Shown here: positions 5,347 to 57,734 of the stretch, one piece after another
How positions within the stretch are numbered: the first letter of the stretch is position 1
How the letters are laid out: every line of letters starts with the position of its first letter
DNA from: Escherichia phage FL20
Sequence record: PP400781
Reading direction: 5' to 3' (one strand)
DNA length: 64,000 bases
Program-made: the position numbers and the translations under genes
Notes under the pieces: generated by a model
The model's database searches: none
What the model was told of the DNA's origin: nothing
The model's input: only the letters and a program-made list of their open reading frames with translations

Positions 5347-5502
5347 TTAAATTTCTTCTACAGTAAAGTCTTCAATGTTATTGTGCTCGGAGAACGTTGC
5401 CAGACCAGCATTCCATGCATCATCCTCAGAGAAGAATACACCGTAACGTTCATATCCTTTAGCGCCTTCAAATTTAACCATTAATTTGTGAGTATGTTTC
5501 AT
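5347..5502 (-). CDS. Hypothetical small protein (51 aa)
   Basis: ATG at 5500-5502 preceded by AAGGAGAATCAAA leader; the longer track ORF 5347..5565 would run through its own promoter. Confidence 0.4.
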   Translation of the reverse strand: MKHTHKLMVKFEGAKGYERYGVFFSEDDAWNAGLATFSEHNNIEDFTVEEI

Positions 5503-5533
5503 TTTGATTCTCCTTCGTTGTCTTGATGAGTTC

Positions 5534-5562
5534 ATTGTAGGGGATCGGCGATCCCCTGTCAA
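5534..5562 (-). promoter_or_regulatory. Sigma70-type early promoter with GATC-containing palindromic spacer
   Basis: TTGACA-ggggatcgccgatcccc-TACAAT on minus strand. Confidence 0.55.
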
Positions 5563-5572
5563 CAACTATTTT

Positions 5573-5785
5573 TTAATTTTTACCCGCTCGTGCATTAATA
5601 AGCATTTTCTGAATAGCCATGATCTGGCTTACTGCTTCTTCTTTACGTTCTTGCGTGATAACGTGACCAGATTCCGCAAACTCTCCAGCAACTTCTTCTA
5701 CGATCTCGCGAACTTGAGAACGTCCAAAGATGCGGTTTCCTTCGTAGCTCATAAATTCTGTTACTACTTGCTCGATAGATTTCAT
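5573..5785 (-). CDS. Hypothetical small protein (70 aa)
   Basis: ATG at 5783-5785 with AGGAGAATCAC RBS; track ORF extends upstream through the promoter. Confidence 0.45.
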   Translation of the reverse strand: MKSIEQVVTEFMSYEGNRIFGRSQVREIVEEVAGEFAESGHVITQERKEEAVSQIMAIQKMLINARAGKN

Positions 5786-5814
5786 GTGATTCTCCTTTCG
5801 TTTGGTATGGGAGT

Positions 5815-5843
5815 ATAATACTACTCCCATGCCTTTACGTCAA
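5815..5843 (-). promoter_or_regulatory. Sigma70-type early promoter with dyad spacer
   Basis: TTGACG-17-TATTAT; gggagta/tactccc inverted repeat over the -10. Confidence 0.5.
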
Positions 5844-5846
5844 CAA

Positions 5847-6008
5847 CTATTTTAAATTATTTTCGACCTTCACCCATTCCGCGTATTCTTGCGCGGCTAC
5901 TTTCGGATTTAGTCCGTCTTCGTACATTGCATCAAGTAATTCTTTGTCGGTGGGCTTATACCCTAGATAAGCCTCCACCTGATTTTTCCAAATTTTATAC
6001 CAGTTCAT
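5847..6008 (-). CDS. Hypothetical small protein (53 aa)
   Basis: Internal ATG at 6006-6008 just after the stop of the upstream ORF. Confidence 0.35.
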   Translation of the reverse strand: MNWYKIWKNQVEAYLGYKPTDKELLDAMYEDGLNPKVAAQEYAEWVKVENNLK

Positions 6009-6012
6009 ATTA

Positions 6013-6216
6013 TCACCAGTCAAGAGCGCGTGTCTCTGCGTCTTCCCATGCTTGGTCCATAACAGCCTTGAAAACATATTCTAAAGTATCATCTTTAGAG
6101 AATCCGAAGACCTTAGACGGGATATCTTCAATTGCTACTCCAGCAACTTCTGCATTACGCGCTTGGCAATAATGCAACTCTAAGTTATCGAGATAGCGAC
6201 CGCCTAATTTCTCCAT
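6013..6216 (-). CDS. Hypothetical small protein
   Basis: 67-aa ORF; promoter TTGACT-17-CATAAT at about 6318-6344 upstream. Confidence 0.4.
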   Translation of the reverse strand: MEKLGGRYLDNLELHYCQARNAEVAGVAIEDIPSKVFGFSKDDTLEYVFKAVMDQAWEDAETRALDW

Positions 6217-6356
6217 ATCATCCCAGCATTCCAGTAACCTACTTTATTTGCAATTGCTAACACTTTGCTGTTTTCGTTGCACATCTTTGATTCTCCTTTT
6301 GTTTGGTGTGTGTGTATTATGCAATGTTGGATTCTGTAAGTCAACAACTTTTTAAA

Positions 6357-6384
6357 ATAAAAAAGCCGACCACACGGATCGGCT
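6357..6384 (-). terminator. Rho-independent terminator
   Basis: Minus strand: agccgatccgtgtggtcggct hairpin followed by tttttatttt. Confidence 0.6.
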
Positions 6385-6394
6385 TAATAATCAG

Positions 6395-10590: not shown

Positions 10591-12705
10591 TTAAAATTTA
10601 ACATTCTTAACCAGTTTCATAAAGTCTTGTGCGCGTTTGTCATTATGCAGAATACGATACCAGTTATCGACAATATCATACAGTAACGGGCTATTCTCTT
10701 TAAACTTCGCACAAACTGCTTTAATTCGTTCGTTTGCTACCGTGAATTTTTCATCACTAATCTTTTTAGTTTCTTCGTCCATAATCCAACGAGTACGAAG
10801 GAGTAACTTGGAAACCTCTTTATTATAATGACGACCGTACAGTCTGTCAATAAATTCTGGAACACAGCGTTCTAGTTCATCGTCATGAAACAACATAGTG
10901 ATCACACCCAGATATTCGCCATACCCCAGATGATTGGTCTTAACCTTCTTAGCCAGACCAGCCAGCTTACCGCGAACAAATTCTAGCGCACATTCCAATT
11001 GTTCGTCAACGAGATATTTTTGTGTCTCGTTTCGAGTAATAATATACTTTGTTACCCCGAAGTAGTCAAGCGCCGTGTGTAATGTATTTTCACTATGGAT
11101 CGATTTACGACTACGGCTTTCGAATGCATCACCTACGCGGAACATGTGCAAGCCTGATAACTCGCGAATCTCTGCCGCTTTCATGTGATGGCTGGTTTTA
11201 TGCCAACTGTCACCAATCTTTTCCATGATATACACGTTAGGCAGCTTAGGAGTCGCTTCACGTTGTGTACGTGTACGCTCGGTCTTCTCCGGTTTAACTG
11301 CTTTAGCACGCAGATCATCGGCCTCAGAAACTTTAATCACGGTCATTTCAGAATCATCATAATACTGTTTGATGTACTCGAAAGTTTCCATATGTTTTTC
11401 GTTGCGCTGACGGAACACCAGTACCTTTTTATTGATGCCGTATTCCTGGACCATACCGTTAAGAGTCAGTGCGCGTAGTTTCGGTTTATCGGTATCATCA
11501 ATAAGACACATAATATCTTCTTTATGCATCCATACAAAATGCGTAATGTTGTATTGACTGCTAACGAAAGCAGGGCGCAATTTACTGATTGTGTGACGAG
11601 TACGATACAGAGTATACACCTGACCTTCTACGTCATTAGGCGAATCTTTACCCGCATTCACAAACTTATTATAGATTGCTACCGGATCATCCCACTGCCC
11701 GGTCTTACCCATCTTGCTAATAATATTGCGTTGAGTCGATGAATACTCGCTCATAAATTGCGCAAGTTTACGCTCTGTTTTAATGTTGGCGATCTTCTCT
11801 TTGACCTTTTCCAACATCATTTCATTGATTTCTGCAATGCGTTTTTCGATGTTCGCTTTAGTCTCAATTGACAAGTGAACTTCTTCACGCGATGGCATCA
11901 GGTCCAGATCACCCAACTCAAAATTAATGTAAATGGTCTGGTGCTGGCGGTTTACAGCTTCTAACCATGTTCCGCGAACATATTCATACGGGATCGGATA
12001 CTGGATCTTACCCATGATTGCATATACTACATAGGAATCGTTATCACGCCCATTACAAACATAATAATTATCAAAGCTAGGGAAATAATTAATTTCGATT
12101 GCATTGATATTAGGTTTGTGTTCCCCAAAATGACGCAGTACAAATTGCGCTTCTCGATGCCATGTCTGAATATCTTTTTCTTTCACCGGAATAGTGATTT
12201 TCAGACCATTGTCTTCATAGGTCGGTTCGTCGAAAATCTGCACCATTTTCGGCATAGAGTTTTGCACAAATGCCGTAAAGCCATAAGCGCGACCATTGTA
12301 ATAGTTTACGATTGTAAAGGTGTCAGTGTAGCTATAAGCAGATTTCGCACCTAAACCAAAAGACCCGATATAGTCATTAGTCTGGTCTTTTGTTGATTCA
12401 AAGTAAACCGTAAACAGTTGTTCTAATTCTTTCTTAGACGGAATACCAGTACCATAATCACGCACAGAAAAATACGGTTCGATTGCAGTCGGTAAATGAA
12501 TATCAAACGGACGATCTAAGGTTCCGGCTTCTTTGTGAGTGTCGGTAGCATTGCACGAATACTCACGGACGCAAGCACGCTCACAATATTGATAAGTGTT
12601 CTTAGAAAGCACCATAAAAGCCTTGCTACTTGCTTTCAGTGAAAAATCAACCGCACCGCTCAGGTCACTGCCAAATACTTCTTCATTATCAATATGCATT
12701 TTCAT
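10591..12705 (-). CDS. rIIA: rIIA protein (GHKL-ATPase-like)
   Basis: 704 aa; N-terminal ATPase-like motifs (GSFGLGAKSAYSY); size and position as T4 rIIA; ATG with GAGGA RBS. Confidence 0.9.
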   Translation of the reverse strand: MKMHIDNEEVFGSDLSGAVDFSLKASSKAFMVLSKNTYQYCERACVREYSCNATDTHKEAGTLDRPFDIHLPTAIEPYFSVRDYGTGIPSKKELEQLFTVYFESTKDQTNDYIGSFGLGAKSAYSYTDTFTIVNYYNGRAYGFTAFVQNSMPKMVQIFDEPTYEDNGLKITIPVKEKDIQTWHREAQFVLRHFGEHKPNINAIEINYFPSFDNYYVCNGRDNDSYVVYAIMGKIQYPIPYEYVRGTWLEAVNRQHQTIYINFELGDLDLMPSREEVHLSIETKANIEKRIAEINEMMLEKVKEKIANIKTERKLAQFMSEYSSTQRNIISKMGKTGQWDDPVAIYNKFVNAGKDSPNDVEGQVYTLYRTRHTISKLRPAFVSSQYNITHFVWMHKEDIMCLIDDTDKPKLRALTLNGMVQEYGINKKVLVFRQRNEKHMETFEYIKQYYDDSEMTVIKVSEADDLRAKAVKPEKTERTRTQREATPKLPNVYIMEKIGDSWHKTSHHMKAAEIRELSGLHMFRVGDAFESRSRKSIHSENTLHTALDYFGVTKYIITRNETQKYLVDEQLECALEFVRGKLAGLAKKVKTNHLGYGEYLGVITMLFHDDELERCVPEFIDRLYGRHYNKEVSKLLLRTRWIMDEETKKISDEKFTVANERIKAVCAKFKENSPLLYDIVDNWYRILHNDKRAQDFMKLVKNVKF

Positions 12706-12719
12706 AATATAATCCTCAC

Positions 12720-12988: not shown

Positions 12989-13183
12989 TTATACATTTTC
13001 AATTACCCATTGCAGATGGGCTTCTGCGTCAACCAGTTCAGCGCGGCTTTTCTCTAAGCACTTGCTGTATTCTTTACGTTCCCACTCGGCAATTTCGTTT
13101 TTCAGGACTTCTTCATAGTAAGCAATTACGCCTTTCAGGTCTGAAACTTTACGGCTTGCCAATTCGATGTAATGGTTACGCAT
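12989..13183 (-). CDS. Hypothetical small protein
   Basis: 64-aa ORF. Confidence 0.4.
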   Translation of the reverse strand: MRNHYIELASRKVSDLKGVIAYYEEVLKNEIAEWERKEYSKCLEKSRAELVDAEAHLQWVIENV

Positions 13184-13379
13184 TTTGATTCTCCTTTGTT
13201 ACTAGATAACGAATTTGGTCTTGCATTGCGATCAGTTCCCAGCGTGCTACTTTCATCATGGAAACTGACTCTTTGAACATAATATTAGCTTTTTCCTTCT
13301 CCCCTGTCAAGTAGATTTCTGCAATTTTTTCACAAAATTTTTGAGTTTCTTCATTCTTAAACGGTTTCATATAAGTCAA
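13176..13379 (-). CDS. Hypothetical small protein
   Basis: 67-aa ORF with promoter TTGACA-17-CATAAT upstream (about 13401-13429). Confidence 0.4.
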   Translation of the reverse strand: MTYMKPFKNEETQKFCEKIAEIYLTGEKEKANIMFKESVSMMKVARWELIAMQDQIRYLVTKENQNA

Positions 13380-13436
13380 CCTTTTGTTTTCGATGGGGAC
13401 ATTATGATATATCCCCGATCCAGTGTCAACAGATTT

Positions 13437-13770: not shown

Positions 13771-13798
13771 ATTATAGAGAATCTCCCTTGTATGTCAA
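13771..13798 (-). promoter_or_regulatory. Sigma70-type early promoter
   Basis: TTGACA-16-TATAAT followed by palindrome gggagtctccc. Confidence 0.5.
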
Positions 13799-13801
13799 GT
13801 G

Positions 13802-15625
13802 TTATGATTGCATCCAAATTTTGCGGCGGTCTGAATCTTCGCTATAGAGCAAATCGAATAGCTCTTTATAGTTTTCCGGTAACGTGATGATTTCCATTAC
13901 AGGATCGTTGATCACGCGATGATAATCTGATTCTGTAAGAGATGCTAACCCTTTGATATATCGAATGCTATAACCTTTGATATTATCTCGGTCGTTCTCG
14001 AAATCTTCTAGGTCATAATACCATCGAACATCATCACCTTTCTTTGGTTCCGCAATGATAATAGGTGTTTTGATAAACCGGATTCGTCCATCTTCGAACA
14101 ATTCAGGCCAACGTGCAAAGAAAGAGATCAGACTAGGTTTAATAGACCCGATCCCGTCAGTATCAGCGTCTGTCATAATCGCAATATTTTTGTATTGCAT
14201 AACTTCCAATGCATCAACACCAAATTGCAAACCAGTGATCGCCATGATGTTAAAAATTTCGGCGTTCTTAACGATCTTTGCCTCCGGTTGTTCCCACGTT
14301 GTAAGAGTTTTGCCTCGCAACGGGAAACCTCCATGTAAATCTGGATCACGTACAGAGACCAGATAGTTGATCGCGGAATCACCTTCCGTCAAAAACAGGG
14401 TAGTTTCTGCGTCAGTTCCAATAAGGTTAGCTTTAACGTGTTTTGCTACCTTAGCCCGTTTCGCTGCTTTGGCTGCCTTAGTCGCTGCCGCTTTATCTGC
14501 TGCCTCTTTGCGTGCCAGGACTACAGCAATAATAGGCATGATAATGTTTTCTTTCTTCGCAATGACTTTAGCCAGCTTTTTAAAATCAAGATCAATATGA
14601 CGCTTGATATCACCAGTTGGATTAGTCAATCGTTCTTTTGTCTGTGAATCAAAACGAAGGTTAGGCAATTCACGAACAATAAGAATACAGGTCAATCCAG
14701 ACTTAACCGCAGCTTTAGTAACATCAACCTTATGTTCTTTCTTGATTCGTTTTACAATCTCTTCACAAAGATCATCTGTCACGTAGTCTACGTGTGTTCC
14801 CCCGTTTTTGGTAAACAGACCATTAGCAAAGGATACTGATTTAAAACCTTCTCCCTCGACCGCAGGAACTAGGGCAAGTGAAAAGTTTTTATCTTCAATG
14901 ACAAACGGATCATCATTGTATAGTTTAGCATAATCCTTGAACTTACTAACAATACGTTTACCATTAAACTTAAACGTGATCTTAGGAAAGATTACGCTCA
15001 ATGATTGCAGACGATCATGAACAATATCTAAAACAGAGTTGTCCATCATATAACCTTCGAAGTGGTCGAAGTCTGGACAAAATGTAACCTTCGTTCCCTT
15101 CAATTTTGATGGTTTTGATGACCATGTGATATTTTCAGCCCCGTTTGTGCATTGAACGGTCATTTCTGTTTCACCGTCACAGGTCACACCAGTAAACCAA
15201 TCGCTAAAGAAATTTGACAACGACGACCCCACACCGTTCATCCCTTGCGTTAATCGATTGGTATCATCAAAGTTAGACCCTGCTTTTGTTCGTGTCCATG
15301 CGGCTACAGGTTGCGGAATCTGCGTACCCTCTGGGGTAGTAACCATATGTTGAGGAATACCGCGACCATTGTCTGTTACCGTAACAATATTGTTTTGGAT
15401 ATCGACGCTAATCACATTGGCAAATTCAAAATTAGTGCGAATCGCCTCGTCTACAGAGTTGTCGATGATCTCATCAATGATTTTAACCAGTCCTGGAACA
15501 TATGAAATTTTTGTCCATTTACCGAACAGGAAACGTTGGTGTTCTTCGTAAGTTGTTGATCCTATATACATTCCTGCACGCTTAAGGACATGTTCACGAT
15601 CAGATAAAATGCGAAACTCACTCAT
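13802..15625 (-). CDS. 39: DNA topoisomerase II large subunit gp39 (GyrB-like), uninterrupted 39+60 fusion
   Basis: 607 aa; GHKL ATPase N-terminus (DNGRGIP) and TOPRIM region (EGDSA) in one ORF; T4 splits this into gp39 and gp60. Confidence 0.9.
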   Translation of the reverse strand: MSEFRILSDREHVLKRAGMYIGSTTYEEHQRFLFGKWTKISYVPGLVKIIDEIIDNSVDEAIRTNFEFANVISVDIQNNIVTVTDNGRGIPQHMVTTPEGTQIPQPVAAWTRTKAGSNFDDTNRLTQGMNGVGSSLSNFFSDWFTGVTCDGETEMTVQCTNGAENITWSSKPSKLKGTKVTFCPDFDHFEGYMMDNSVLDIVHDRLQSLSVIFPKITFKFNGKRIVSKFKDYAKLYNDDPFVIEDKNFSLALVPAVEGEGFKSVSFANGLFTKNGGTHVDYVTDDLCEEIVKRIKKEHKVDVTKAAVKSGLTCILIVRELPNLRFDSQTKERLTNPTGDIKRHIDLDFKKLAKVIAKKENIIMPIIAVVLARKEAADKAAATKAAKAAKRAKVAKHVKANLIGTDAETTLFLTEGDSAINYLVSVRDPDLHGGFPLRGKTLTTWEQPEAKIVKNAEIFNIMAITGLQFGVDALEVMQYKNIAIMTDADTDGIGSIKPSLISFFARWPELFEDGRIRFIKTPIIIAEPKKGDDVRWYYDLEDFENDRDNIKGYSIRYIKGLASLTESDYHRVINDPVMEIITLPENYKELFDLLYSEDSDRRKIWMQS

Positions 15626-15724
15626 TATTAAACCTCTTCATAACATAACCATAACTTACTGCAACCGCCACAAAGACGGCTGCAACAATCATATTAAAAA
15701 TTGAGTGATTGTCAAGTATATGAC

Positions 15725-43887: not shown

Positions 43888-43930
43888 ATTTGATTCTCCT
43901 GTAAAGTTGTATCTCGTCTTGATGAATATA

Positions 43931-43958
43931 GTATAGGGGATCGCGAGATCCCCGTCAA
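43931..43958 (-). promoter_or_regulatory. Sigma70-type early promoter with GATC palindromic spacer
   Basis: TTGAC(G)-gggatctcgcgatcccc-TATACT. Confidence 0.5.
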
Positions 43959-45053: not shown

Positions 45054-45121
45054 GTTGTCCTCTCGTTGTTTTCGATGTGAGCATTATACATTAGCTAATC
45101 ATGTTGTCAACACCCCAAAAC

Positions 45122-45148
45122 GAAAAAGCCGACCCTTTCGGATCGGCT
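45122..45148 (-). terminator. Rho-independent terminator downstream of nrdD
   Basis: Minus strand: agccgatccgaaagggtcggct hairpin then tttttcg; same hairpin module as at 57735-57762. Confidence 0.55.
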
Positions 45149-47060: not shown

Positions 47061-47555
47061 TTATTTTACCAGTTCTGCTAATTCTTTTTCCGCCGCTTCC
47101 AGTTCAGCTTTCAGTTGTTTGATCTCTTGTCGCTTCTTATTAGCGGCTTCCTGCTTACTATTTCGGATAACCTGATCTAGATACAACTCCCAATCCTGAA
47201 TATTTTTGATAATGTAGCCGTCAACGTTCAGAGCTTTAATATTAAGAACTTCTTCCAGCTTACTTAAAGAACGTTGTGTTTCGGGGAAGAAATAGTCATA
47301 TTCACCTCGGTCAAACCAGTATCTTATGCCAGCTTTATCTAAACGACGATGCAATTCATAAAAATCTTTACCATCTTCGACGATGAGTTTGTCTACATCG
47401 CCATTACAGTTAACAGAGACTTTGAATCTAATATTATCAACCCCACCAAAAACATCAATAAGGATAGTTCCGATCGTGTTATCCGCGCTTCCAGTATCCA
47501 TAAAAGATTCTAGTTTTTCTTGATTAGTAACGTACCAAACATCTTGTTTCCACAT
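47061..47555 (-). CDS. WEVGK-module family protein (divergent module plus coiled-coil tail)
   Basis: 164 aa; C-terminal heptad tail KRQEIKQLKAELEAAEKELAELVK. Confidence 0.45.
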   Translation of the reverse strand: MWKQDVWYVTNQEKLESFMDTGSADNTIGTILIDVFGGVDNIRFKVSVNCNGDVDKLIVEDGKDFYELHRRLDKAGIRYWFDRGEYDYFFPETQRSLSKLEEVLNIKALNVDGYIIKNIQDWELYLDQVIRNSKQEAANKKRQEIKQLKAELEAAEKELAELVK

Positions 47556-47584
47556 AATATAATCCTCTCGTTGTTAAGTGGGAG

Positions 47585-47613
47585 TATTATAGCATACTCC
47601 CTTCGCATGTCAA
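47585..47613 (-). promoter_or_regulatory. Sigma70-type early promoter with dyad spacer
   Basis: TTGACA-tgcgaagggagtatgc-TATAAT; arms gggagtat/atactccc. Confidence 0.55.
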
Positions 47614-48788
47614 GCACTAACTTTTTTCTTTACTGCTTTCACCTTCTGGCGAATTGCTCGAATCTCTTCGATCTCTTTTTCAGTCTCTTTAACAATTTCT
47701 TTGCGATTCTGAATATCTGTATCTAGATTCTCATCGAGTTTAGGCAGCATGTCGATCAAGAACTTTTTAAGATCTTTCAGGTTTCGGATAACAGCACCTT
47801 CACCCATTACCGCCACGCCTACACCATCCGGCAGACCACCAAACAGTTTAACCAGTTCAGACAGATGATCATGATCTTCTAGTGCTTCTTCCGGTTCAGA
47901 TGGCAGTTCAACAAAGTAATAACGTTCATCATTGCTGATCAGGTGATACCAGCAAAGCCCGAAAGATTTCGGTGTATATTCTACACCATCAATTTCAACC
48001 GCGTCAACACTTCCATAATCATCTACTTTAGTTACCTTAAATCCTTGTCCCAGCTTTTGAACAATTTCAACAACATGACTTGATACAGTTTCAGCGGTAA
48101 ACCAATATGGCAAATTATGCTGATTTGGCTTGTAGCGTTCACCTACTTTAAATCTCTGACCAGCCGCTTGCATAGCATGAAATTGTTGTTTCGTGATTTC
48201 CGCGAAGTATTCAAATTCGCCACCATCAAACACACAAGCCCATTGATCACAAAAACGATCTGCCTTAACAGTTTCACCTTTCGCGGTGATCATGGTAGCT
48301 GATCCATGCAATTCTTCTTCAACTAAAAAGCCATATTCGACAAAATCAACAAGTTTCATGGCTTCTTTGTGCTCTGGATCATGCTCTCCCCAGAATCGCT
48401 TAAATTCTTGCAAACCTTCTGGGGTAAACGAATAACATTTACCTTTTTCAAAGTAAGTCGGCATTGCATCCTCTTTCTTGTTCATCGCTTCGTATGCCTC
48501 TTTTGAGATACGTTTAAAGAATTTACGCTCATCGTGCATAATCATAGTAGCCCAATAATAAACGATATCCTCAGCGGAATAAACTACATCTCCAGCTTCA
48601 ATAGTAATAACATGACCGTGGTCATCTTTTTCTAATACTTTAAAGCCCTTTTCTACGATTTCAGCAACCCGAATATGACCACGGCGCGAAGCATCGGTCA
48701 GAATAATTGAATAGCGAGAAAAGTCTAGAAACTCATCTTTACCGCCTTCACGGAATGCATAGTAATGACCTTCAAAGAATTTAGCCAT
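47610..48788 (-). CDS. WEVGK-module family protein (3 tandem modules plus tail)
   Basis: 392 aa; three repeats each with a G(E/K)xY core, an IEAGD/VEIDG box and an ERKFF/ERYYF box; Lys/Glu coiled-coil tail. Confidence 0.5.
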   Translation of the reverse strand: MAKFFEGHYYAFREGGKDEFLDFSRYSIILTDASRRGHIRVAEIVEKGFKVLEKDDHGHVITIEAGDVVYSAEDIVYYWATMIMHDERKFFKRISKEAYEAMNKKEDAMPTYFEKGKCYSFTPEGLQEFKRFWGEHDPEHKEAMKLVDFVEYGFLVEEELHGSATMITAKGETVKADRFCDQWACVFDGGEFEYFAEITKQQFHAMQAAGQRFKVGERYKPNQHNLPYWFTAETVSSHVVEIVQKLGQGFKVTKVDDYGSVDAVEIDGVEYTPKSFGLCWYHLISNDERYYFVELPSEPEEALEDHDHLSELVKLFGGLPDGVGVAVMGEGAVIRNLKDLKKFLIDMLPKLDENLDTDIQNRKEIVKETEKEIEEIRAIRQKVKAVKKKVSA

Positions 48789-48819
48789 AATATAATCCTC
48801 TCGTTGTTTAGACGGGAGT

Positions 48820-48848
48820 ATCTTACTACTCCCGTTTCATCATGTCAA
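48820..48848 (-). promoter_or_regulatory. Sigma70-type early promoter with dyad spacer
   Basis: TTGACA-17-TAAGAT; gggagta/tactccc inverted repeat. Confidence 0.55.
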
Positions 48849-49429
48849 GCGTTAAATGACTTTTGGATCTCTTTCAGTTCAGCTACTTTATCGGCGCTGA
48901 ATTTAGCGTAGGCATCATGTCGAATAATTTCACTTTCAAGAAAGGTTTCCAGCCGAGATCTATTTTCAATAAGGAACTCTTTCAGGTCTTCCGCGTTCTT
49001 GATAAAGATTTTATTGTCGGTAATGTCATCTTCAATCGCAAAGGAGATAGAGCGAACTTTACCAAACAAGTTAATCAGATCTTCCAGAGATTCTTCTTTC
49101 TTAACTGGTTTCATTTCTTCAAACTGCTTTTTAGTGATGCGTTTAAAGTATTTGCGCTCGCTTGCATCAATCATGATTGACGCACCCTCATAATCATGAG
49201 TTTCTACCAAATACACTTTACCCATAACATTAACCGTAAGAACTTTAAAGCCCCTGTGAAGCACACCATACAGGAACTTGTTATGTTGTGGGTAGCGTTT
49301 AACAAATTCCTCTGCGGACTCAGCATTACGGAAAGTGTAATAACGACCTCGTTCAAAAACAGCATCATTTGAAGACTTAGACGGATACAATTTATACGTT
49401 TTCTGTACCATAATATAATCCTCTATCAT
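48845..49429 (-). CDS. WEVGK-module family protein (1 module plus tail)
   Basis: 194 aa (true start possibly the internal ATG about 18 nt in); QKTYKL ... SERKYFKRI ... Confidence 0.45.
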   Translation of the reverse strand: MIEDYIMVQKTYKLYPSKSSNDAVFERGRYYTFRNAESAEEFVKRYPQHNKFLYGVLHRGFKVLTVNVMGKVYLVETHDYEGASIMIDASERKYFKRITKKQFEEMKPVKKEESLEDLINLFGKVRSISFAIEDDITDNKIFIKNAEDLKEFLIENRSRLETFLESEIIRHDAYAKFSADKVAELKEIQKSFNA

Positions 49430-49698
49430 TTCACTAATTGAACAGCACGGAACAGAATGCGCTCACACGGAAGCAGCATAAATTCCCAACGCGGATCAAA
49501 GTCTTTAGCGGTGTATGTTTTCCCATCAACCGAGATTTCACTTACATAACCAACAGGTGACACTTTAAGAACAGTAAACCCATTCTTGATGACTTCGTAG
49601 GTATCTTTCACCCCTTCGTATTCATCATCTAAGAAGTCTTTATGTGCTTGCTCAGATTTAAAAACATAGGCCACACCGGATTTAAACATCTTACGCAT
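49426..49698 (-). CDS. WEVGK-module family protein, short (90 aa)
   Basis: ATG at 49696-49698 with AGGAGAATCAACA leader; KSGVAYVFKSEQAHKDF ... ISVDGKTYTAKDFD. Confidence 0.45.
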   Translation of the reverse strand: MRKMFKSGVAYVFKSEQAHKDFLDDEYEGVKDTYEVIKNGFTVLKVSPVGYVSEISVDGKTYTAKDFDPRWEFMLLPCERILFRAVQLVK

Positions 49699-49730
49699 TG
49701 TTGATTCTCCTTCTTGATTAGATGGGAGTA

Positions 49731-49758
49731 TTTTACTACTCCCATTTCTTATTGTCAA
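49731..49758 (-). promoter_or_regulatory. Sigma70-type early promoter with dyad spacer
   Basis: TTGACA-17-TAAAAT; gggagta/tactccc. Confidence 0.5.
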
Positions 49759-52611: not shown

Positions 52612-52920
52612 TTATTTCACGTTAACGCCGTCATCAATCCAGCCGACGCTATTTGGTTTAACAGTTTTACCATAGGATGCATACTTAATCAAGCATGGTT
52701 TAACATCATTATCAAATCTTCCTAAACGTACTCCCAAATCAGGAATATCCATGTATGCGGCTTTATATCCCCATGTGCCATATTCAGAATCAATCTCAAC
52801 CGGACGGCCTTTAAAAGCATACACTACACCGTGACGGTCAACGATAACATAGCAATAGCAAGCCGGAAGATACACAGTTTCGCCGTAAACTTTAACTGGA
52901 GTAGCAGAAGAGATAAACAT
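52612..52920 (-). CDS. Hypothetical protein (102 aa)
   Basis: ATG at 52918-52920 with GAGGA RBS; promoter TTGACA-17-TATAAT at about 52955-52984. Confidence 0.4.
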   Translation of the reverse strand: MFISSATPVKVYGETVYLPACYCYVIVDRHGVVYAFKGRPVEIDSEYGTWGYKAAYMDIPDLGVRLGRFDNDVKPCLIKYASYGKTVKPNSVGWIDDGVNVK

Positions 52921-52989
52921 AATATAATCCTCACATCGTTCATTTGATGCGGTCATTATATGATAACCGCATTTTCATGTCAACAGTTT

Positions 52990-53412: not shown

Positions 53413-53587
53413 TCAGAGTGGTCCAGTTAGATCCGCTCTCAACGGTAAAGGTTTTAATACCCAGCTTCGCTGCCAAGTCGAACGCAAACCGGACGCAACC
53501 ACGGCAGGAAGTGATATTGGAAGTTTTGATTTTAAAGCCACCGCGAGTTTTAGAAATTTCTACTTTAGCGAAAGACAGGTTGCTCAT
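53309..53587 (-). CDS. Hypothetical protein
   Basis: 92-aa ORF with AGGAGAATCAAAATG leader; partly overlaps the previous ORF in another frame, so one of the two starts is uncertain. Confidence 0.4.
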   Translation of the reverse strand: MSNLSFAKVEISKTRGGFKIKTSNITSCRGCVRFAFDLAAKLGIKTFTVESGSNWTTLIVTAAWINGEYVEKAYFDIFYDYEEKCFYALQDM

Positions 53588-53629
53588 TTTGATTCTCCTT
53601 AAGAAAGTGTGTTTCGTTTTGATGTGTGT

Positions 53630-53658
53630 AGTATAGGGGATACGTGATCCCCTGTCAA
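53630..53658 (-). promoter_or_regulatory. Sigma70-type early promoter with dyad spacer
   Basis: TTGACA-ggggatcacgtatcccc-CTATAC. Confidence 0.5.
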
Positions 53659-54237: not shown

Positions 54238-54491
54238 AGTTTCCTCAACCAGTTATTAAAGCGAGTAAACAATGATGATTTTCGTGCTTCTTTTACTTTA
54301 TGTGCACGTAAACCACTGAAACACCATTCATAATCATCACTGAAACATGATTCAACAGGAACACCCGCATTTCGTAGTTCTCTGGTCTTTATCATGAATC
54401 CTTGACATAAGGGGCGACCTTCAACAATGATAGGAAGTTTAACTTTTTCCATGAAAGTATACCCAGCACGGTCAATAATTTCAATCTTCAT
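54234..54491 (-). CDS. Small paralog family member A
   Basis: 85 aa; MKIEIIDRAGYTFMEKVKLPIIVEGRP ... resembles 54510..54713 and 56188..56463. Confidence 0.45.
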   Translation of the reverse strand: MKIEIIDRAGYTFMEKVKLPIIVEGRPLCQGFMIKTRELRNAGVPVESCFSDDYEWCFSGLRAHKVKEARKSSLFTRFNNWLRKL

Positions 54492-54509
54492 AATATAATC
54501 CTCAATTGA

Positions 54510-54713
54510 TTACACTTCCCAGGCTTCTTTGCTAAGAAAACACCATTTATACTCAGGAGAATAACCTTTAATCGGTACTCCCGCTTTTTGTAATTCCTGC
54601 GTTTCAACAACATAATCATGCCCATATGGTCGGCCTTCCACGATGATAGGAAGTTTAACACCTTTCATGAAAGAATATCCACCATCGTCAAAAATTTCAA
54701 TTTTAATTTTCAT
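54510..54713 (-). CDS. Small paralog family member B
   Basis: 67 aa; MKIKIEIFDDGGYSFMKGVKLPIIVEGRP ... Confidence 0.45.
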   Translation of the reverse strand: MKIKIEIFDDGGYSFMKGVKLPIIVEGRPYGHDYVVETQELQKAGVPIKGYSPEYKWCFLSKEAWEV

Positions 54714-54736
54714 TTTACATTATCTCCATAGTTCTT

Positions 54737-54958
54737 TCAATCAATATCAATTTCACCAGCACGAACATCTAGGATAAGATGCGGTAGGTGTATGCAATTT
54801 TCCCAACCAATGCGCTTCATTTCTTCTACGGTAACGTAAGCCCACCCGTTCGCTGTAATAAAGTCTACTTCAACCTTGAGAGGAAAGCAAGACTTTTCTA
54901 TGTCTTCGAATCCGATAATGTGTTTTGTCGTTGAATATGGAATATATCCGGTGATCAT
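54737..54958 (-). CDS. Hypothetical small protein
   Basis: 73-aa ORF. Confidence 0.4.
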   Translation of the reverse strand: MITGYIPYSTTKHIIGFEDIEKSCFPLKVEVDFITANGWAYVTVEEMKRIGWENCIHLPHLILDVRAGEIDID

Positions 54959-55389
54959 TTTGTGATCTCCTTATACTCAACACACCATAAGCGGGTAGCC
55001 CATGATAAACGCTCATAACGCTGGCAGAAATCGGACCATAGATATTGTGTACCGTCTTGCATGGTTGAAATATGCGTTTTCTCACCTACTTTCACGAAAG
55101 AAGTATTCGATTTTGTGATCTCGACCGGAGTATATCCGAAAGCTGGTTCCAAGTCAACATCTGAACTAAATGCTAATTTAACAGAATTTGTTTTTCTGAC
55201 CGCTGTCCGGTTTCCTTCTGGGTATAGCACAGCAGGGTTAGCGCCTAAGCGGATAAACTCAGTGTTTTTAATAAACAGAATATCATGATAACCGTCATAT
55301 TCCGACACTTCCATAGTAACAGGAAAATCGACATGTGCTAAACCTGGTAGATCTCGCATATCATGAAAGGTCGCCATCAACTTTTTCAT
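54955..55389 (-). CDS. Hypothetical protein
   Basis: 144-aa ORF; its C-terminal third is duplicated in 55453..55644. Confidence 0.4.
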   Translation of the reverse strand: MKKLMATFHDMRDLPGLAHVDFPVTMEVSEYDGYHDILFIKNTEFIRLGANPAVLYPEGNRTAVRKTNSVKLAFSSDVDLEPAFGYTPVEITKSNTSFVKVGEKTHISTMQDGTQYLWSDFCQRYERLSWATRLWCVEYKEITK

Positions 55390-55452
55390 TCTATATTCCT
55401 CACTCTTCTGTAATTACTTCATATTCAATTTTCCATACATCAATCGCCCAGC

Positions 55453-55644
55453 TTAAAAGCTCATACGATTTACAGAAAGATGACCAAATATACTGTTTCC
55501 GTGCATCGTTGTTATGTGTGTATGCTCACCAACTTCAACGAAAGACATATTTGACTTTGTGATAACTATAGGAATGCGACCGAAAGGTGGCGGTATTACT
55601 GATTCGTTGGTCTTCATTCTATATTCCTCACTCTTCTGTTTCAT
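55453..55644 (-). CDS. Hypothetical small protein, partial duplicate of the 54955..55389 C-terminus
   Basis: 63 aa; VITKSNMSFVEVGEHTHITTM versus VEITKSNTSFVKVGEKTHISTM. Confidence 0.35.
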   Translation of the reverse strand: MKQKSEEYRMKTNESVIPPPFGRIPIVITKSNMSFVEVGEHTHITTMHGNSIFGHLSVNRMSF

Positions 55645-55864
55645 TTCTTTTATATGGTACTATAACAGGATTAATACAGCAAGCACCAATTACGTTATGA
55701 GCACCACAATTTAAGCATTTATAATCATGGAACTTATTAAGGAATCGCCCGAACTCATAACCGACTAACGCCGCGTGTACTTGAGTCTCGATCTCATCCA
55801 TATCAGCCAATGTTTTAACCTTCATAATATAATCCTCAAATACTGGTTTTGCGAAGATGGTCAT
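55628..55864 (-). CDS. Hypothetical small protein (Cys-containing)
   Basis: 78-aa ORF. Confidence 0.35.
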   Translation of the reverse strand: MTIFAKPVFEDYIMKVKTLADMDEIETQVHAALVGYEFGRFLNKFHDYKCLNCGAHNVIGACCINPVIVPYKRNETEE

Positions 55865-56126
55865 TACATGCTTTTAATGCATCAGTCGAGGTGTCATAGC
55901 GAGTATTATCATAGCACCAGTAACCATCTGTCAACTGATAAATTAATCCATCCTTTTTAGCTTCGATGAAAGACAATTCTTTGAAAGTTTCTACTTTCTT
56001 TGCTGATACTCCACGGTCACGGCGTTTATAGAGTTTAGCTAAAACGCGTTCAGCTTGTTCCTCTTTATCGCCAGACAGATCCCAGATGACGTTTCTGATA
56101 TGCTTGATTAATTGTTCAGTGGTCAT
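55836..56126 (-). CDS. Hypothetical protein
   Basis: 96-aa ORF with AGGAGAATCAAAT leader. Confidence 0.4.
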   Translation of the reverse strand: MTTEQLIKHIRNVIWDLSGDKEEQAERVLAKLYKRRDRGVSAKKVETFKELSFIEAKKDGLIYQLTDGYWCYDNTRYDTSTDALKACNDHLRKTSI

Positions 56127-56156
56127 ATTTGATTCTCCTTAGTTGGTATGGTTATC

Positions 56157-56184
56157 ATTATACGGGGATTTCTCCCCGTGTCAA
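56157..56184 (-). promoter_or_regulatory. Sigma70-type early promoter with dyad spacer
   Basis: TTGACA-cggggagaaatccccg-TATAAT. Confidence 0.55.
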
Positions 56185-56187
56185 CAA

Positions 56188-56463
56188 TTAAATGATCTCT
56201 GCTTCACCGTTAAGGAAGAAAGACCATGTTTTGTTAGGATAACGAAGCGCCCATGATTCAGCAGTTTTAACACCAGCTTCGAACAATTGACGGCTGGTTA
56301 CTTTAGCCATACCATCTTCGATGGCAACGTTTTCAATAATCATCGGGTACTTAGCGCCACGCATGAAACCGAAGCCAGCGGAAGATTTGATGATTTTAAC
56401 AGTTGCCATTTTTGATTCTCCTAGAAAGTGTCGTGTTTCGATGGGTGTATTATGCAATAACAC
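56188..56463 (-). CDS. Small paralog family member C
   Basis: Internal start MATVKIIKSSAGFGFMRGAKYPMIIEN...; AGGAGAATCAAAA leader. Confidence 0.4.
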   Translation of the reverse strand: MLLHNTPIETRHFLGESKMATVKIIKSSAGFGFMRGAKYPMIIENVAIEDGMAKVTSRQLFEAGVKTAESWALRYPNKTWSFFLNGEAEII

Positions 56464-56495
56464 CGGATCGCTGTCAACACTTTCTAAGAAAAATT

Positions 56496-56780
56496 TTAAA
56501 TTAATCGAATATAACCAAGAATTTCAGCGCCTTTAGCCAGTCCTAAAACTTCCCATTCAAGGTCGCCGTAGTCATAATTTGCAACCATCAACTGACCATT
56601 TTTCATGCAGCAATCATGAGAGAAAATTTGCCCCGCATAAACTACGATAGTAATAAACTTTCCTGATTCTGGCGGTGTGGAAGACAAAGCGACCATATGA
56701 CCATTCAGCTTAGTAACCAGTGATGGAACAATAAAATTCGGGCTTACCTTAATACCGTTAAATTCGTTTGTGTCTTTCAT
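56496..56780 (-). CDS. Hypothetical protein
   Basis: 94-aa ORF. Confidence 0.4.
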   Translation of the reverse strand: MKDTNEFNGIKVSPNFIVPSLVTKLNGHMVALSSTPPESGKFITIVVYAGQIFSHDCCMKNGQLMVANYDYGDLEWEVLGLAKGAEILGYIRLI

Positions 56781-57127
56781 GCCAGACCTCGCAAAACACT
56801 AATAGCATAATCATGCTGGTTATTCATAATATCAATTGCATTGTGATAACGAGCTAAACCATCAAGGATAAATTCTTGTTTATCCTGTTTCAGTTTGGTA
56901 TCACGCGCAGCCATAAGAGCATCAAGAACAGGTCCAAAGTGATTATCTAATTCATCTTCGGTTGCAATGTTTCCTATTGCCTCGTCGATCCGTGATTCTA
57001 ATGCTTGCTTTTCGTTGATCACTTGCTGGGTATATTCCAACACATCAAGAATATCGCGGGTAACGTCGCCATGATAAGGTATTCCCGCATGAAGATGATC
57101 AATTAATCGCTGAATATCAATGTTCAT
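56777..57127 (-). CDS. Hypothetical protein
   Basis: 116-aa ORF. Confidence 0.4.
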   Translation of the reverse strand: MNIDIQRLIDHLHAGIPYHGDVTRDILDVLEYTQQVINEKQALESRIDEAIGNIATEDELDNHFGPVLDALMAARDTKLKQDKQEFILDGLARYHNAIDIMNNQHDYAISVLRGLA

Positions 57128-57462
57128 TTGTAACCCTCCTCTGAAAGCACATCCCAGATCGTTGAGTCAAGGTGCATTAAATTCCACATAATAGAGTCAT
57201 AACTACCGAAGCCAGAAGTAAAAATTACATCACACTGGCGATAGGTCTTATGAAAATCGGTGGCTGTCTCTGCATCAATCGGCATATCGTCACCTGAAAG
57301 CACCAGACATTTAAGAATCATAACTCTGTTAGCCGTTGGCGCTTGCTTAGTCTTTTCAGCATATTTTTCGATGATCCGTTTTGCCTTTTCTTCTTTGATA
57401 CGTCCAGACCAAATCCGGTTTCGGTATTGATTCATAATAATTTCAATCACATCATTTTGCAT
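57124..57462 (-). CDS. Hypothetical protein
   Basis: 112-aa ORF. Confidence 0.4.
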   Translation of the reverse strand: MQNDVIEIIMNQYRNRIWSGRIKEEKAKRIIEKYAEKTKQAPTANRVMILKCLVLSGDDMPIDAETATDFHKTYRQCDVIFTSGFGSYDSIMWNLMHLDSTIWDVLSEEGYK

Positions 57463-57661
57463 TCTTCACGGTCTCCATAATTGTTTTGTAAGCCAGCTTA
57501 AGATGATCACCGAAAAACTTTGCAGTGTTACCCTTCTGATCGCGGAGCATGGTTTCTACGATCTCATCGGCAGTAACAATTTCTCCTTTCTTTGCTGCAT
57601 GTTCTACCATATACTTCAAAGTTTCTTCGGAAGCAAGTGCTGCGGCTACTGGATTAATCAT
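57452..57661 (-). CDS. Hypothetical small protein
   Basis: 69-aa ORF; promoter TTGACA-17-CATAAT at about 57691-57719 and AGGAGAATCAAA leader. Confidence 0.4.
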   Translation of the reverse strand: MINPVAAALASEETLKYMVEHAAKKGEIVTADEIVETMLRDQKGNTAKFFGDHLKLAYKTIMETVKNAK

Positions 57662-57734
57662 TTTGATTCTCCTTTGTTGTCGATGTGTGCATTATGCTAT
57701 ACCCTATTCCGGTTGTCAACACCTAAAAACGAAA

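Follow-up and report, generated by a model that had tools for sequence, protein, structure and literature searches.

A repeated early-gene leader in an RB49-like coliphage is very probably the transcribed half of PeSL cassettes

The leader repeated before many small early genes is, with a probability of about 0.9, the downstream, transcribed 3' half of PeSL ('promoter-early stem-loop') cassettes, a known multi-copy regulatory family of Krischvirus of about 100 bp. The DNA analysed here, a 64-kb stretch referred to as the window, comes from such a phage, an RB49/phi1-like T4-type coliphage (95–98% identity to Krischvirus genomes), and its minus strand carries almost all of its genes. The repeat is genuine, yet already known: the PeSL family has been published for RB49-type coliphages, with descriptions in RB49 and phi1 (Arbiol 2010, PMC2839356; Comeau 2014, PMC4122927). 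Two observations go beyond the published description, namely a second stereotyped start region, GAGGATTATATTATG, and the resemblance of the 11-mer of the first (class A) start region to the RegB/S1 site.

Conservation of the leader

A sequence-only reading had proposed that many small genes share a stereotyped leader, and our analysis confirms it. We found 11 copies of GGAGAATCA on the minus strand of the window and none on the plus strand, with conservation extending over ~95 nt, far beyond the length of a Shine-Dalgarno (SD) sequence. The motif quoted in that reading is correct as a sequence but was given in gene sense; its actual location is the minus strand. AGGAGAATCAA, with at most one mismatch, has 11 matches, all on the minus strand, versus 1.61 ± 1.24 expected (100 shuffles, maximum 4), and CATCRARAC has 9 matches versus 2.87 expected, a count reached in 0 of 100 shuffles. 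Alignment of the regions upstream of start codons revealed extended conservation and not merely a generic SD: two stereotyped start classes carry 12 to 19 bits over positions –20 to –1, versus 3.6 bits for the 94 other start regions of the window, which have a weak generic SD. The second of these classes (class B, GAGGATTATATTATG) is also strongly overrepresented in the window. Aligning the starts on GGAG shows that AA-GGAGAATCAAA hardly varies across 12 genes.

Most copies of AGGAGAATCAA are preceded by gTTGACA-N16–18-TAnAAT, then 5 nt, CAT(C) and an A/C-rich leader. CAT lies exactly 5 nt past the –10 hexamer in 14 of 26 strong promoters (~0.4 expected from base composition). A MAFFT alignment of 18 cassettes gave the consensus AAnAAAnTnTnAAAAAGTTGTTGACA-N17-TATAATACnCC-CATCnAAAC...GGAGAATCAA..ATG over ~95 columns. 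Among orthologs, leaders are 98.2% and start regions 98.6% conserved, compared with 93.1% for third codon positions. One and the same 5' part of the leader is combined with differing stem-loop types and with both classes of start region.

Anatomy of the cassettes

PeSLs of the window begin with a UP-like, AT-rich stretch that has AAAAGTTG at its end, followed by a sigma70 promoter, N5-CAT as the start-site context, the 5' UTR and a strong SD with the ATG of the downstream gene, which forms the 3' end of the cassette as in other PeSLs. Directly 5' of TTGACA the alignment consensus reads AAnAAAnTnTnAAAAAGTTG, matching the upstream region of PeSLs. The promoters are close to the sigma70 consensus (TTGACA-N16–18-TAnAAT), as PeSL promoters are; upstream of minus-strand genes 26 score at least 10/12, four of them 12/12. 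PeSLs are characterized by a stable GC-rich stem-loop of the Gn-loop-Cn type, which may occupy the spacer, span the –10 or –35 box, or sit upstream or just past the –10 box; in the window it is found within the spacer, over the –10 box or, as a terminator, ahead of the promoter. GGGGATCnnnGATCCCC forms a spacer stem-loop at 5562, 43958 and 53658, with a similar one at 56184, GGGAGTAG-TAnnAT-ACTCCC spans the –10 box at 5340, 5843, 48848, 49758 and 62363, and terminator hairpins precede cassettes at 45148–45127 and 57759–57732. The largest direct-repeat families of the window (D1, D2, D4, D10, D13, D15, D18, D20) are these cassettes.

The 5' UTR is short (~23–36 nt), A/C-rich and, by folding prediction, weakly structured. 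That the leader contains a structured cis-regulatory RNA (a riboswitch, a thermometer or a protein operator hairpin) is extremely unlikely: sequence conservation is what speaks for it, but no Rfam family reaches gathering score anywhere in the window, and the predicted class A transcripts from +1 to ATG+33 are calculated to fold weakly (–2 to –8 kcal/mol per ~60 nt). The GC stem-loops fall outside the cassette's own transcript because they precede or span the –10 box, which also argues against a structured leader. Class A has a predicted SD accessibility of 0.57, compared with 0.49 in other PeSL-proximal transcripts (P = 0.04); in a fixed –30 to +36 window class A does not differ significantly from non-PeSL genes (0.54 versus 0.49, P = 0.15).

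Individual cassettes and their genes

All cassettes listed here are on the minus strand. Class A members are found at 5500–5562 (TTGACA, spacer stem-loop GGGGATCgccGATCCCC, TACAAT, N5, CATCAAGACAACGAAGGAGAATCAAA) before a 51-aa ORFan starting at 5502, and at 5783–5843 (TTGACG, GGGAGTAG/ACTCCC stem-loop spanning TATTAT, the –10 box, CATACCAAACGAAAGGAGAATCAC; repeats D1 and D15) before a 70-aa gene with its ATG at 5785. The class A cassette at 6282–6344, chimeric relative to phage SSG23, has a terminator hairpin upstream, TTGACT-N17-CATAAT and CACACCAAACAAAAGGAGAATCAAAG; a 1-nt deletion truncates the gene that starts at 6284, leaving 26 aa. At 19450–19510 TTGACA-N17-AATAAT and CATGCCAACTAAGGAGAATCAATT precede srd (anti-sigma factor, 251 aa). 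Long leaders are found at 43885–43958 (spacer stem-loop GGGATCtcgcGATCCC, CATCAAGACGAGATACAACTTTACAGGAGAATCAAAT; ATG 43887, 50 aa; repeat D4) and at 53585–53658 (GGGGATCacgtATCCCC in the spacer, CATCAAAACGAAACACACTTTCTTAAGGAGAATCAAA; ATG 53587, 92 aa). The remaining class A cassettes are at 49696–49758 (GGGAGTAG-TAAAAT-ACTCCC stem-loop, CATCTAATCAAGAAGGAGAATCAACA; ATG 49698, 90 aa; repeat D1), 56124–56184 (promoter agreeing with the sigma70 consensus at 12/12 positions, spacer with CGGGGAGAAATCCCCG, CCATACCAACTAAGGAGAATCAAAT; ATG 56126), 56407–56485 (TTGACA-N17-CATAAT, CATCGAAACACGACACTTTCTAGGAGAATCAAAA; ATG 56409, 73 aa), 57659–57759 (the hairpin at 57759–57732 upstream, TTGACA-N17-CATAAT, CATCGACAACAAAGGAGAATCAAA; ATG 57661, 69 aa) and, as a variant, 62301–62363 (GGGGGTAG-TAATAT-ACCCCC stem-loop, CATCGAAACAACAAAGGAGTATTAAA; ATG 62303, 111 aa; repeat D1). 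In the cassette at 56407–56485 the leader segment CACTTTCT has its complement, AGAAAGTG, just 5' of the –35 box. A class A start region at 13181–13200 (AACAAAGGAGAATCAAAATG, ATG 13183) overlaps the ORF upstream, being contained in its 3' end; because it has no promoter, a start region can outlast its cassette, a point against the cassette explanation.

The same promoter and CATC leader occur with a GAGG-type SD in six cassettes, with starts at 5277, 37536, 45053, 47555, 48788 and 52920. A class B start region is found at 5275–5340 (CATCAAGACAA leader, start region GAGGAATATATTATG), 47553–47613 (CACTTAACAACGAGAGGATTATATT), 48786–48848 (CGTCTAAACAACGAGAGGATTATATT; repeat D10) and 52918–52983 (12/12 promoter, CATCAAATGAACGATGTGAGGATTATATT). 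The PeSL at 45051–45148 has a terminator hairpin upstream (45148–45127), a 12/12 promoter and CATCGAAAACAACGAGAGGACAAC, and an extended –10 promoter (TGaTATAGT) with a CATCGAAAACGAAGAGAGG leader lies upstream of gene 47 at 37534–37577. At 13368–13429 a PeSL with an CATCGAAAAC leader and an SD outside class A (AAAAGGTTGACTTAT) precedes the ATG at 13370.

Eight of the starts given in the sequence-only reading are right (5502, 5785, 19452, 43887, 49698, 53587, 56126 and 57661) and four needed amendment. The true ATG of '56463' is at 56409; that of '13379' is at 13370, where the CATCGAAAAC leader is present but the GGAGAATCA core is absent; 58388 has GGAGAATAGAG only, without the CATC leader; and 62303 carries the variant GGAGTATTAAA. 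Two true members, 6284 and the promoter-less 13183, had been omitted.

Altogether the window holds ~18–26 PeSL copies, and RB49 has five more outside it (55–61 kb). Matches to a 91-nt PeSL query are confined to the 58 Krischvirus records among 50,697 phage records, with 3–7 places in each. As is typical of multi-copy PeSLs, the cassettes stand in variable regions, mostly before small ORFs of unknown function: among ten class A genes scanned, nine belong to PHROGs families of unknown function and the tenth is Srd.

Recombination between cassettes

That promoter-leader-ORF units were acquired or shuffled in the manner of cassettes, as had been suggested from the sequence, is the published explanation for PeSLs in RB49 and phi1 (PMC2839356), and our comparative data agree with it. 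Against five relatives we found 17 indel events, seven of which touch a PeSL, while PeSLs make up 4.3% of the sequence. Breakpoints are enriched at PeSLs relative to uniform random placement (P = 2.6e–4), and the enrichment is not significant when the null places breakpoints at gene junctions only (P = 0.05–0.5). Also against the cassette explanation, four to five of the 17 indels are homing-endonuclease insertions unrelated to PeSLs.

Indel or replacement junctions fall inside cassettes, as described for PeSLs, at 5354–5563, 5571–5583, 5851–5865, 6282–6317 and 56150–56188. The 51-aa ORF between two PeSLs at 5354–5563 is absent from MIZ4, and a g38-like gene is inserted at the PeSL at 56150–56188 in RB49 and SSG23. 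Where the window has a single PeSL at 6282–6344, SSG23 has an additional PeSL and a 68-aa ORF; compared with SSG23 the window copy is a chimera, with the crossover inside the leader in 36 nt of shared homology (leader and SD, 6282–6317). The breakpoints sought at leader boundaries are located anywhere within the ~100-bp cassette rather than at those boundaries specifically. Published PeSL crossovers lie between the –10 box and the SD/ATG, and mini-circles have been shown (Arbiol et al., PMC2839356).

One could also expect such likeness from function without ancestry or recombination, each gene having independently evolved its near-consensus promoter, best-suited start context, unstructured leader and strong SD. 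Every conserved block does fall on a functional signal (–35, –10, CAT start, SD), and the 16-mer AAGGAGAATCAAAATG alone occurs singly in many unrelated viral contigs. However, positions to which no signal function is known to belong are shared too (the spacer stem-loops GGGGATC...GATCCCC, GGGAGTAG...ACTCCC and the AATCAAA spacer), BLAST-detectable paralogy is limited to one genus, and both chimeric cassettes and PeSL-flanked indels are seen. Convergent optimization alone is very unlikely, being contradicted by the chimeric junction at 6282–6317 and the published PeSL mini-circles (PMC2839356).

Resemblance of the start region to RegB/S1 sites

T4 RegB acting with S1 cuts a single-stranded site of 11 nt, GG*AGRAYARAA, which occurs chiefly in the SDs of early mRNAs (PMC1702504; PMC3014915) and has A at positions 6, 8 and 11 as its most conserved feature (PMC1702504). 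Of the 11 positions of the consensus GGAGRAYARAA, the class A 11-mer GGAGAAUCAAA agrees with 10. GGAG, which fits the invariant GGA with G or U at position 4, is present in 12 of 12 class A start regions, and AAUCAAA matches RAYARAA at 6 of 7, the mismatch being C at position 8, where T4 strongly prefers A. GGAG-type SDs are overrepresented at PeSL-proximal genes (15 of 26 versus 22 of 93 others, P = 0.0016), as are RegB-consensus scores of at least 10 (7 of 26 versus 3 of 93, P = 9e–4), and RegB-like matches favour the coding strand (13 versus 2). The class A sites are promoter-proximal and intergenic, with predicted weak structure and an SD region predicted to be ~57% unpaired. The window encodes RegB itself (61541–61963, minus strand; Pfam REGB_T4, E = 1.1e–48), an ortholog of RB49p094. 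The start region of regB, GGAUAAUAAAA, matches the T4 consensus at 11 of 11 positions if the rarely cleaved GGAU (U at position 4) is accepted, and a GGAU-type site has been reported cut in RB49, whose RegB belongs to a set of three divergent sequences (PMC3014915).

With this resemblance and regB present, the other option raised from the sequence, a shared translational control element, is plausible. In its strong form the uniformity would mainly reflect a post-transcriptional element selected in each early message, with GGAGAAUCAAA either cut by RegB/S1 or enhancing translation through S1; the regulon would be strongly translated and then inactivated, and GAGG-type (class B) starts would escape. 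We consider this tentatively, at somewhat below even odds. The matches and enrichments above point to it, as do the weakly structured predicted leaders, the promoter-less copy at 13183 and the non-SD AAUCAAA, almost invariant among paralogs and strongly conserved among orthologs. On the other hand, the C at position 8 speaks against it, paralogs could be nearly identical just as well because they share a recent ancestor or because cassettes undergo gene conversion with one another, and the available portions of the PeSL papers (PMC2839356, PMC4122927) do not invoke RegB. The cassette model leaves room for such an element, which may overlie it.

Comparison with known systems

There is no essential difference between the cassettes of the window and published PeSLs. 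Those of RB49 and phi1, from the same genus, have the same AT-rich region, TTGACA-N17-TATAAT, variably placed Gn-loop-Cn stem, SD and ATG; they likewise sit before ORFans in hyperplastic regions and show the same link to indels between close relatives, with crossovers in the stretch that runs from the –10 box to the SD/ATG. Alignments in the portions of the PeSL papers available to us (PMC2839356, PMC4122927) are anchored on promoter and SD, and those portions are silent on the CAT context of the start, the A/C-rich nature of the leader, the existence of two discrete start-region classes and any role at the RNA level. T4-type early promoters and the PeSL/PmSL variants of T4/PST and KVP40/nt-1 are also composite promoter-terminator motifs beside variable genes, but have TTTACW or TTGYVH –35 boxes and other stems (PMC4122927), whereas the window has a near-perfect sigma70 consensus. 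T4 RegB/S1 sites (Durand et al. 2006, PMC1702504) share with class A a GGAG SD in front of early promoter-proximal genes, a 7-mer rich in A directly 3' of GGAG, a single-stranded context (predicted here) and a phage-encoded RegB. The candidate sites of class A have C where T4 has A at position 8, and RB49 RegB is divergent. Integron gene cassettes, by analogy only, are small promoter-proximal ORFs likewise swapped as units at short conserved sites; integrons use an integrase and attC, whereas PeSLs have neither, and their exchange is attributed to general homologous recombination over ~20–100 bp of repeated regulatory sequence.

Early expression and gene shuffling

Early promoter and terminator activity of PeSLs has been shown experimentally in RB49 and phi1 (PMC2839356). 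As published for those phages, host RNA polymerase would fire PeSL promoters immediately after infection while the stem-loop would block read-through from the upstream unit; the unstructured leader and AAGGAG SD would then allow efficient translation. As a second layer, RegB with ribosomal protein S1 may cut the SD at GGAGAAUCAAA and shut early messages off; judged from its sequence, the strictly conserved 11-mer probably also serves as a RegB/S1 target. Because ~95 nt are common to dozens of copies, the homologous recombination machinery of the phage very probably crosses over from one cassette to another, and such crossovers delete, insert or swap the intervening ORFs and generate chimeric cassettes. 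Overall, PeSLs in RB49-type coliphages both turn on small early genes and provide the homology for shuffling them.

Identity and conservation of the repeated leader

Window pieces of 6 and 25 kb match 58 and more than 60 GenBank phage records, respectively, at 95–98% identity, and every matched record is a Krischvirus (RB49/phi1/JSE-like T4-type coliphages); position 1 of RB49, at the end of rIIA, corresponds to window position 10591. The minus strand carries all genes from about 2250 onward. Hence, the leader motif noted in the sequence-only reading is a gene-sense reading of the minus strand. We called 121 minus-strand genes, spot-checked them against the RB49 annotation, and searched for promoters within 75 nt of each start. 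Sigma70-like matches of at least 9/12 were found at 36 of the 121 genes. The strong-promoter set (n = 26) comprises 24 promoters scoring at least 10/12 and two added by hand (6284, 37536).

The stereotyped leader is real. We found 11 copies of GGAGAATCA on the minus strand of the window and none on the plus strand. AGGAGAATCAA with at most one mismatch occurs at 11 sites (1.61 ± 1.24 in shuffles, shuffle maximum 4), and CATCRARAC at 9 sites versus 2.87 expected in the window. CAT lies exactly 5 nt past the –10 hexamer in 14 of the 26 strong promoters (∼0.4 expected by composition), and CA is found at the same offset in 18. Alignment of start regions at GGAG shows AA-GGAGAATCAAA to be near-invariant across 12 genes. 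The consensus of 18 cassettes aligned with MAFFT is ∼95 columns long and contains, in order, an AT-rich tract (AAAAAGTTG), TTGACA, TATAAT, ACnCC-CATCnAAAC, GGAGAATCAA, and ATG. The alternative that only a generic Shine–Dalgarno (SD) sequence is shared fails, since conservation is extended and the weak generic SD alone at 94 other start regions holds 3.6 bits over –20..–1 versus 12–19 bits for the stereotyped classes. The list of sites in the sequence-only reading needs correction: the true ATG for 56463 is 56409, and for 13379 it is 13370, where the leader is present with a different SD; 58388 carries GGAGAATAGAG alone, 62303 is a variant (GGAGTATTAAA), and 6284 and 13183 had been omitted.

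The leader belongs to promoter-early stem-loop (PeSL) cassettes, already published for the same phage genus. RB49 and phi1 have about 51–52 PeSL motifs each (Arbiol et al. 2010, PMC2839356), conserved over ∼100 bp and with a preference for sites upstream of ORFans in hyperplastic regions. Their parts are an AT-rich region, a near-perfect sigma70 promoter, a Gn-loop-Cn stem-loop with five possible positions, and a 3′-terminal SD with start codon; by experiment, promoter activity is strong (∼13,000 Miller units) and the stem-loop acts as a terminator (PMC2839356). The concept was widened to other T4-like phages (Comeau et al. 2014, PMC4122927). All sequence-level defining features of PeSLs are found in the window, and Krischvirus early promoters follow the host sigma70 consensus rather than having the T4-type –35 box. 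Among 50,697 phage records, a 91-nt PeSL query (57655–57745) matches 58 Krischvirus records only, at 3–7 places per record. The short patterns AAGGAGAATCAAAATG and CATCRARAC-N2-30-GGAGAATCA are by themselves too generic for tracing the family. Among the matches listed in IMG/VR scans, nearly all are single and lie in unrelated contigs, and several matches per contig occur only in Krischvirus-sized contigs (164,706 and 150,344 bp). In RB49, five further PeSLs lie outside the window at record positions 57732–60680 (55–61 kb), with the same leader as in the window (CATCGAAAC) and start-region variants GGAGAATCAAA, GGAGTATCAAA, and GGAGGACCAAA.

In a comparison with five Krischvirus relatives (RB49, kvi, MIZ4, Skers, and SSG23), identity between orthologs is 98.2% in PeSL leaders and 98.6% in the 16 nt preceding PeSL ATGs, the corresponding values being 98.3% for codon positions 1+2, 93.1% for third positions, and 96.9% for start regions of other genes. 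Such high identity between orthologs implies that leaders are held constant, via selection or homogenisation between copies.

Cassette anatomy and start-region classes

Each PeSL begins with an AT-rich upstream region, gTTGACA, a 16–18-nt spacer, and TAnAAT or CATAAT, and continues with five nt, CAT(C), an A/C-rich, G/U-poor leader (for example AUCGAAACAACAAA), the SD, 3–8 nt, and ATG. The predicted transcription start is the A of CAT(C). A CAT start context followed by an A-rich initial transcribed sequence would suit near-consensus promoters, where it is compatible with efficient initiation and escape, and CA-rich unstructured leaders are known translation enhancers. A GC-rich inverted repeat occupies one of three places per cassette: the spacer (GGGGATCnnnGATCCCC at 5562, 43958, and 53658; CGGGGAGAAATCCCCG at 56184), across the –10 box (GGGAGTAG-TAnnAT-ACTCCC at 5340, 5843, 48848, 49758, and 62363), or upstream as a terminator-like hairpin (45148–45127, 57759–57732, and upstream of 6344). 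Independently, a repeat finder returned PeSL cassettes as the largest direct-repeat families of the window.

Stereotyped start regions, named here by ATG coordinate, form two discrete classes. Class A, with a GGAG-type SD, reads AAGGAGAATCAAA(N0-3)ATG and is found at 12 genes; of ten class A cargo genes scanned, nine belong to unknown-function PHROGs families and the tenth encodes the Srd anti-sigma factor. Class B, with a GAGG-type SD, reads GAGGATTATATTATG and has 17 minus-strand sites at ≤2 mismatches versus 0.33 expected, for example 4194–4208, 12703–12717, 25564–25578, 47553–47567, 48786–48800, 49409–49423, 52918–52932, 54489–54503, and 55823–55837. It is used both by genes behind PeSL promoters and by operon-internal genes, rIIA among them. 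The AU-rich surroundings of the class B AUG resemble T4 RegA operators (AAAUUAUG), and regA itself lies at 29715–30077 on the minus strand. One and the same leader 5′ part is combined with different stem-loop types and with either class: for example, CATCAAGACAA occurs at 5277 (class B), 5502, and 43887 (both class A). The cassette itself is therefore mosaic.

Some minus-strand sites depart from this layout. In three long-leader cassettes (43900–43925, 53599–53625, and 56422–56445), the SD is preceded by an additional block, ACACTTTCT(T)A or ACAACTTTACA. The block of the 56409 cassette is complementary to AGAAAGTG (56478–56485, minus strand) just upstream of the –35 box, so that pairing within a read-through transcript could span the entire promoter. 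At 13181–13200, a perfect class A start region (AACAAAGGAGAATCAAAATG) lacks a promoter and sits inside the 3′ end of ORF 13176–13370; it is either a cassette relic or a start region selected on its own.

Recombination at cassettes and other variable loci

Homologous stretches of 66–67 kb were stitched from the five relatives, with BLAST alignments chained to the window. The early region holds 17 distinct indel or replacement events. In seven of them a breakpoint falls within one of the 26 PeSL intervals, whose combined length is 4.3% of the sequence (binomial test against uniform placement, P-value = 2.6e–4). Under a stricter null, with breakpoints at gene junctions only (a PeSL is present at 26 of 121), this excess loses significance (P-value = 0.05–0.5, 17 events in five relatives). 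Hence, a preference for PeSLs over intergenic regions in general is to be argued from junction sequences and the literature, not from this statistic. Two of the seven events (15572–15639 and 37533–37537) are probably homing-endonuclease insertions beside gene starts, and an eighth event (13798–13829) adjoins a promoter absent from the list of 26. Automatic junction extraction gave segments inflated by paralogous PeSL matches and was kept only as a catalogue of the relatives' cassettes.

The junction sequences are more telling than the breakpoint statistics. At 6282–6317, two cassettes lie in tandem in SSG23: the first (TTGACT...CATAAT-acacc-CATACCAAACAAAAGGAGATTCAAAAATG) precedes a 68-aa ORF and the second (TTGACA...GGGAGTAG-TAACAT-ACTCC-CATACCAAACAAAAGGAGAATCAAAGATG) the orthologous gene. 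In the window there is only one cassette, which joins the promoter of the first to the start region of the second, with a 36-nt overlap that corresponds to the common leader and SD. At 5354–5563, a 51-aa ORF between two PeSLs is missing in MIZ4, and on the MIZ4 sequence the alignments to either side have 17 nt in common. At 5851–5865, MIZ4, Skers, and SSG23 carry ∼500 bp of extra DNA, which holds two annotated ORFs in MIZ4 and additional PeSLs in MIZ4 and Skers. At 56150–56188, RB49 and SSG23 have a g38-like adhesin gene with one junction at the leader 5′ end. These junctions support cassette-like shuffling of promoter-leader-ORF units, which the sequence-only reading had proposed correctly and which is already published. 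Crossovers lie anywhere in the repeat and not specifically at leader boundaries, where that reading had proposed to look for breakpoints.

PeSLs are one among several sources of plasticity. Events unrelated to them involve HNH or NUMOD4 endonuclease genes (28430, 37533, 15572, 21659–22212, and 63542) and class B start-region repeats (54491; tandem duplication 55411/55613). A 184-aa minus-strand ORF at 21652–22206, found in the window and missing in all five relatives, has a NUMOD4 motif suggestive of a homing endonuclease; on the relatives' sequence, the alignments to either side of it have 11 nt in common. The set of mobile endonuclease genes varies among the relatives. The HNH_3 gene at the right end of the window (63539–64000, minus strand) is shared, among the relatives, with MIZ4 only. 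In kvi and MIZ4, DNA polymerase gp43 is split at 28430–28442 by an inserted gene annotated as HNH endonuclease (MIZ4) or hypothetical (kvi), an HNH gene follows gene 47 in RB49 and MIZ4 (37533–37537), and in MIZ4 and Skers a gene inserted upstream of gene 39 (15572–15639) is annotated as putative endonuclease (Skers) or hypothetical (MIZ4). Indel breakpoints at class B-type repeats were seen at 54491 and 55411–55613. The ∼200-bp tandem duplication at 55411/55613, with ACAGAAGAGTGAGGAATATAGAATG at its boundaries, occurs in the window but not in RB49, MIZ4, or Skers; in kvi and SSG23 the entire 54491–55613 stretch is replaced. A replacement also begins exactly at ATG 54491. The class A gene at 6013–6284 (minus strand), ortholog of RB49p266, is cut to 26 aa by a 1-nt deletion (90 aa in RB49, MIZ4, and SSG23; 291 nt in all five relatives versus 290 in the window) and is either a pseudogene or a sequencing error. 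Adjacent minus-strand genes of ∼160–270 aa at 41377–43235 have 5′ segments that are repeated from one gene to another (direct-repeat families D8 and D17), as would be expected of a small family of tandem paralogs.

Putative RNA-level control

Shared translational control was also proposed in the sequence-only reading. A structured RNA element in the leader was rejected as unlikely, because predicted class A transcripts fold weakly (–2 to –8 kcal/mol for ∼60 nt), predicted SD accessibility differs marginally from that of other PeSL-proximal transcripts (0.57 versus 0.49, P-value = 0.04), and a gathering-score search of the whole window found no Rfam family. Control via the endoribonuclease RegB and ribosomal protein S1 is plausible from sequence comparison. 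T4 RegB, activated by S1, cleaves GG/AG in the SD of early mRNAs and requires the 11-nt consensus GGAGRAYARAA, in T4 GGAGAAUAAAA (PMC1702504; PMC3014915). The class A 11-mer GGAGAAUCAAA matches this consensus at 10 of 11 positions, the sole mismatch being a C at position 8, among the best-conserved A positions in T4 RegB/S1 sites. GGAG-type SDs are commoner at PeSL-proximal genes (15/26 versus 22/93, P-value = 0.0016), as are consensus matches of at least 10/11 (7/26 versus 3/93 other genes, P-value = 9e–4); such sites number 13 on the coding strand versus 2 on the other. A regB gene is present at 61541–61963 (Pfam REGB_T4, 1.1e–48) with its own start region GGAUAAUAAAA, and the GGAU SD of RB49 regB is cleaved in vivo (review, PMC3014915). 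In text searches, neither PeSL paper (PMC2839356, PMC4122927) mentions RegB; the former also lacks 'mRNA' and 'translational', and the latter 'translation'.

A second function of GGAGAAUCAAA as a putative RegB/S1 target is thus a reasonable but tentative reading, to which we assign a probability of about 0.35–0.4. The Krischvirus-specific 11-mer would then be the RegB/S1 recognition element, and class A messages (GGAG AAUCAAA) would be cut by RegB in the SD, between GG and AG. Class B messages (GAGG AUUAUAUU AUG; GAGGAUUAUAUU) would resist RegB, and their start region GAGGAUUAUAUUAUG might fall under RegA control instead. With the recognition element inside the cassette, shuffling would pass a complete transcription-translation-decay programme to any captured ORF. 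The joint reading, in which PeSLs carry a RegB/S1 off-switch, the two classes split early genes, and shuffling transfers the whole programme, is possible at slightly lower confidence.

Overall, PeSLs are a published case of a regulatory sequence doubling as a recombination substrate, allowing a large lytic phage to swap accessory genes with expression kept intact, and the window is a further, nearly identical instance. An addition to the literature is possible only at the RNA level: the start context, the A/C-rich leader, the two start classes, and the candidate RegB/S1 site. If true, the RegB/S1 reading would explain the near-invariant SD-ATG spacer and would link gene shuffling to post-transcriptional shut-off in Krischvirus.
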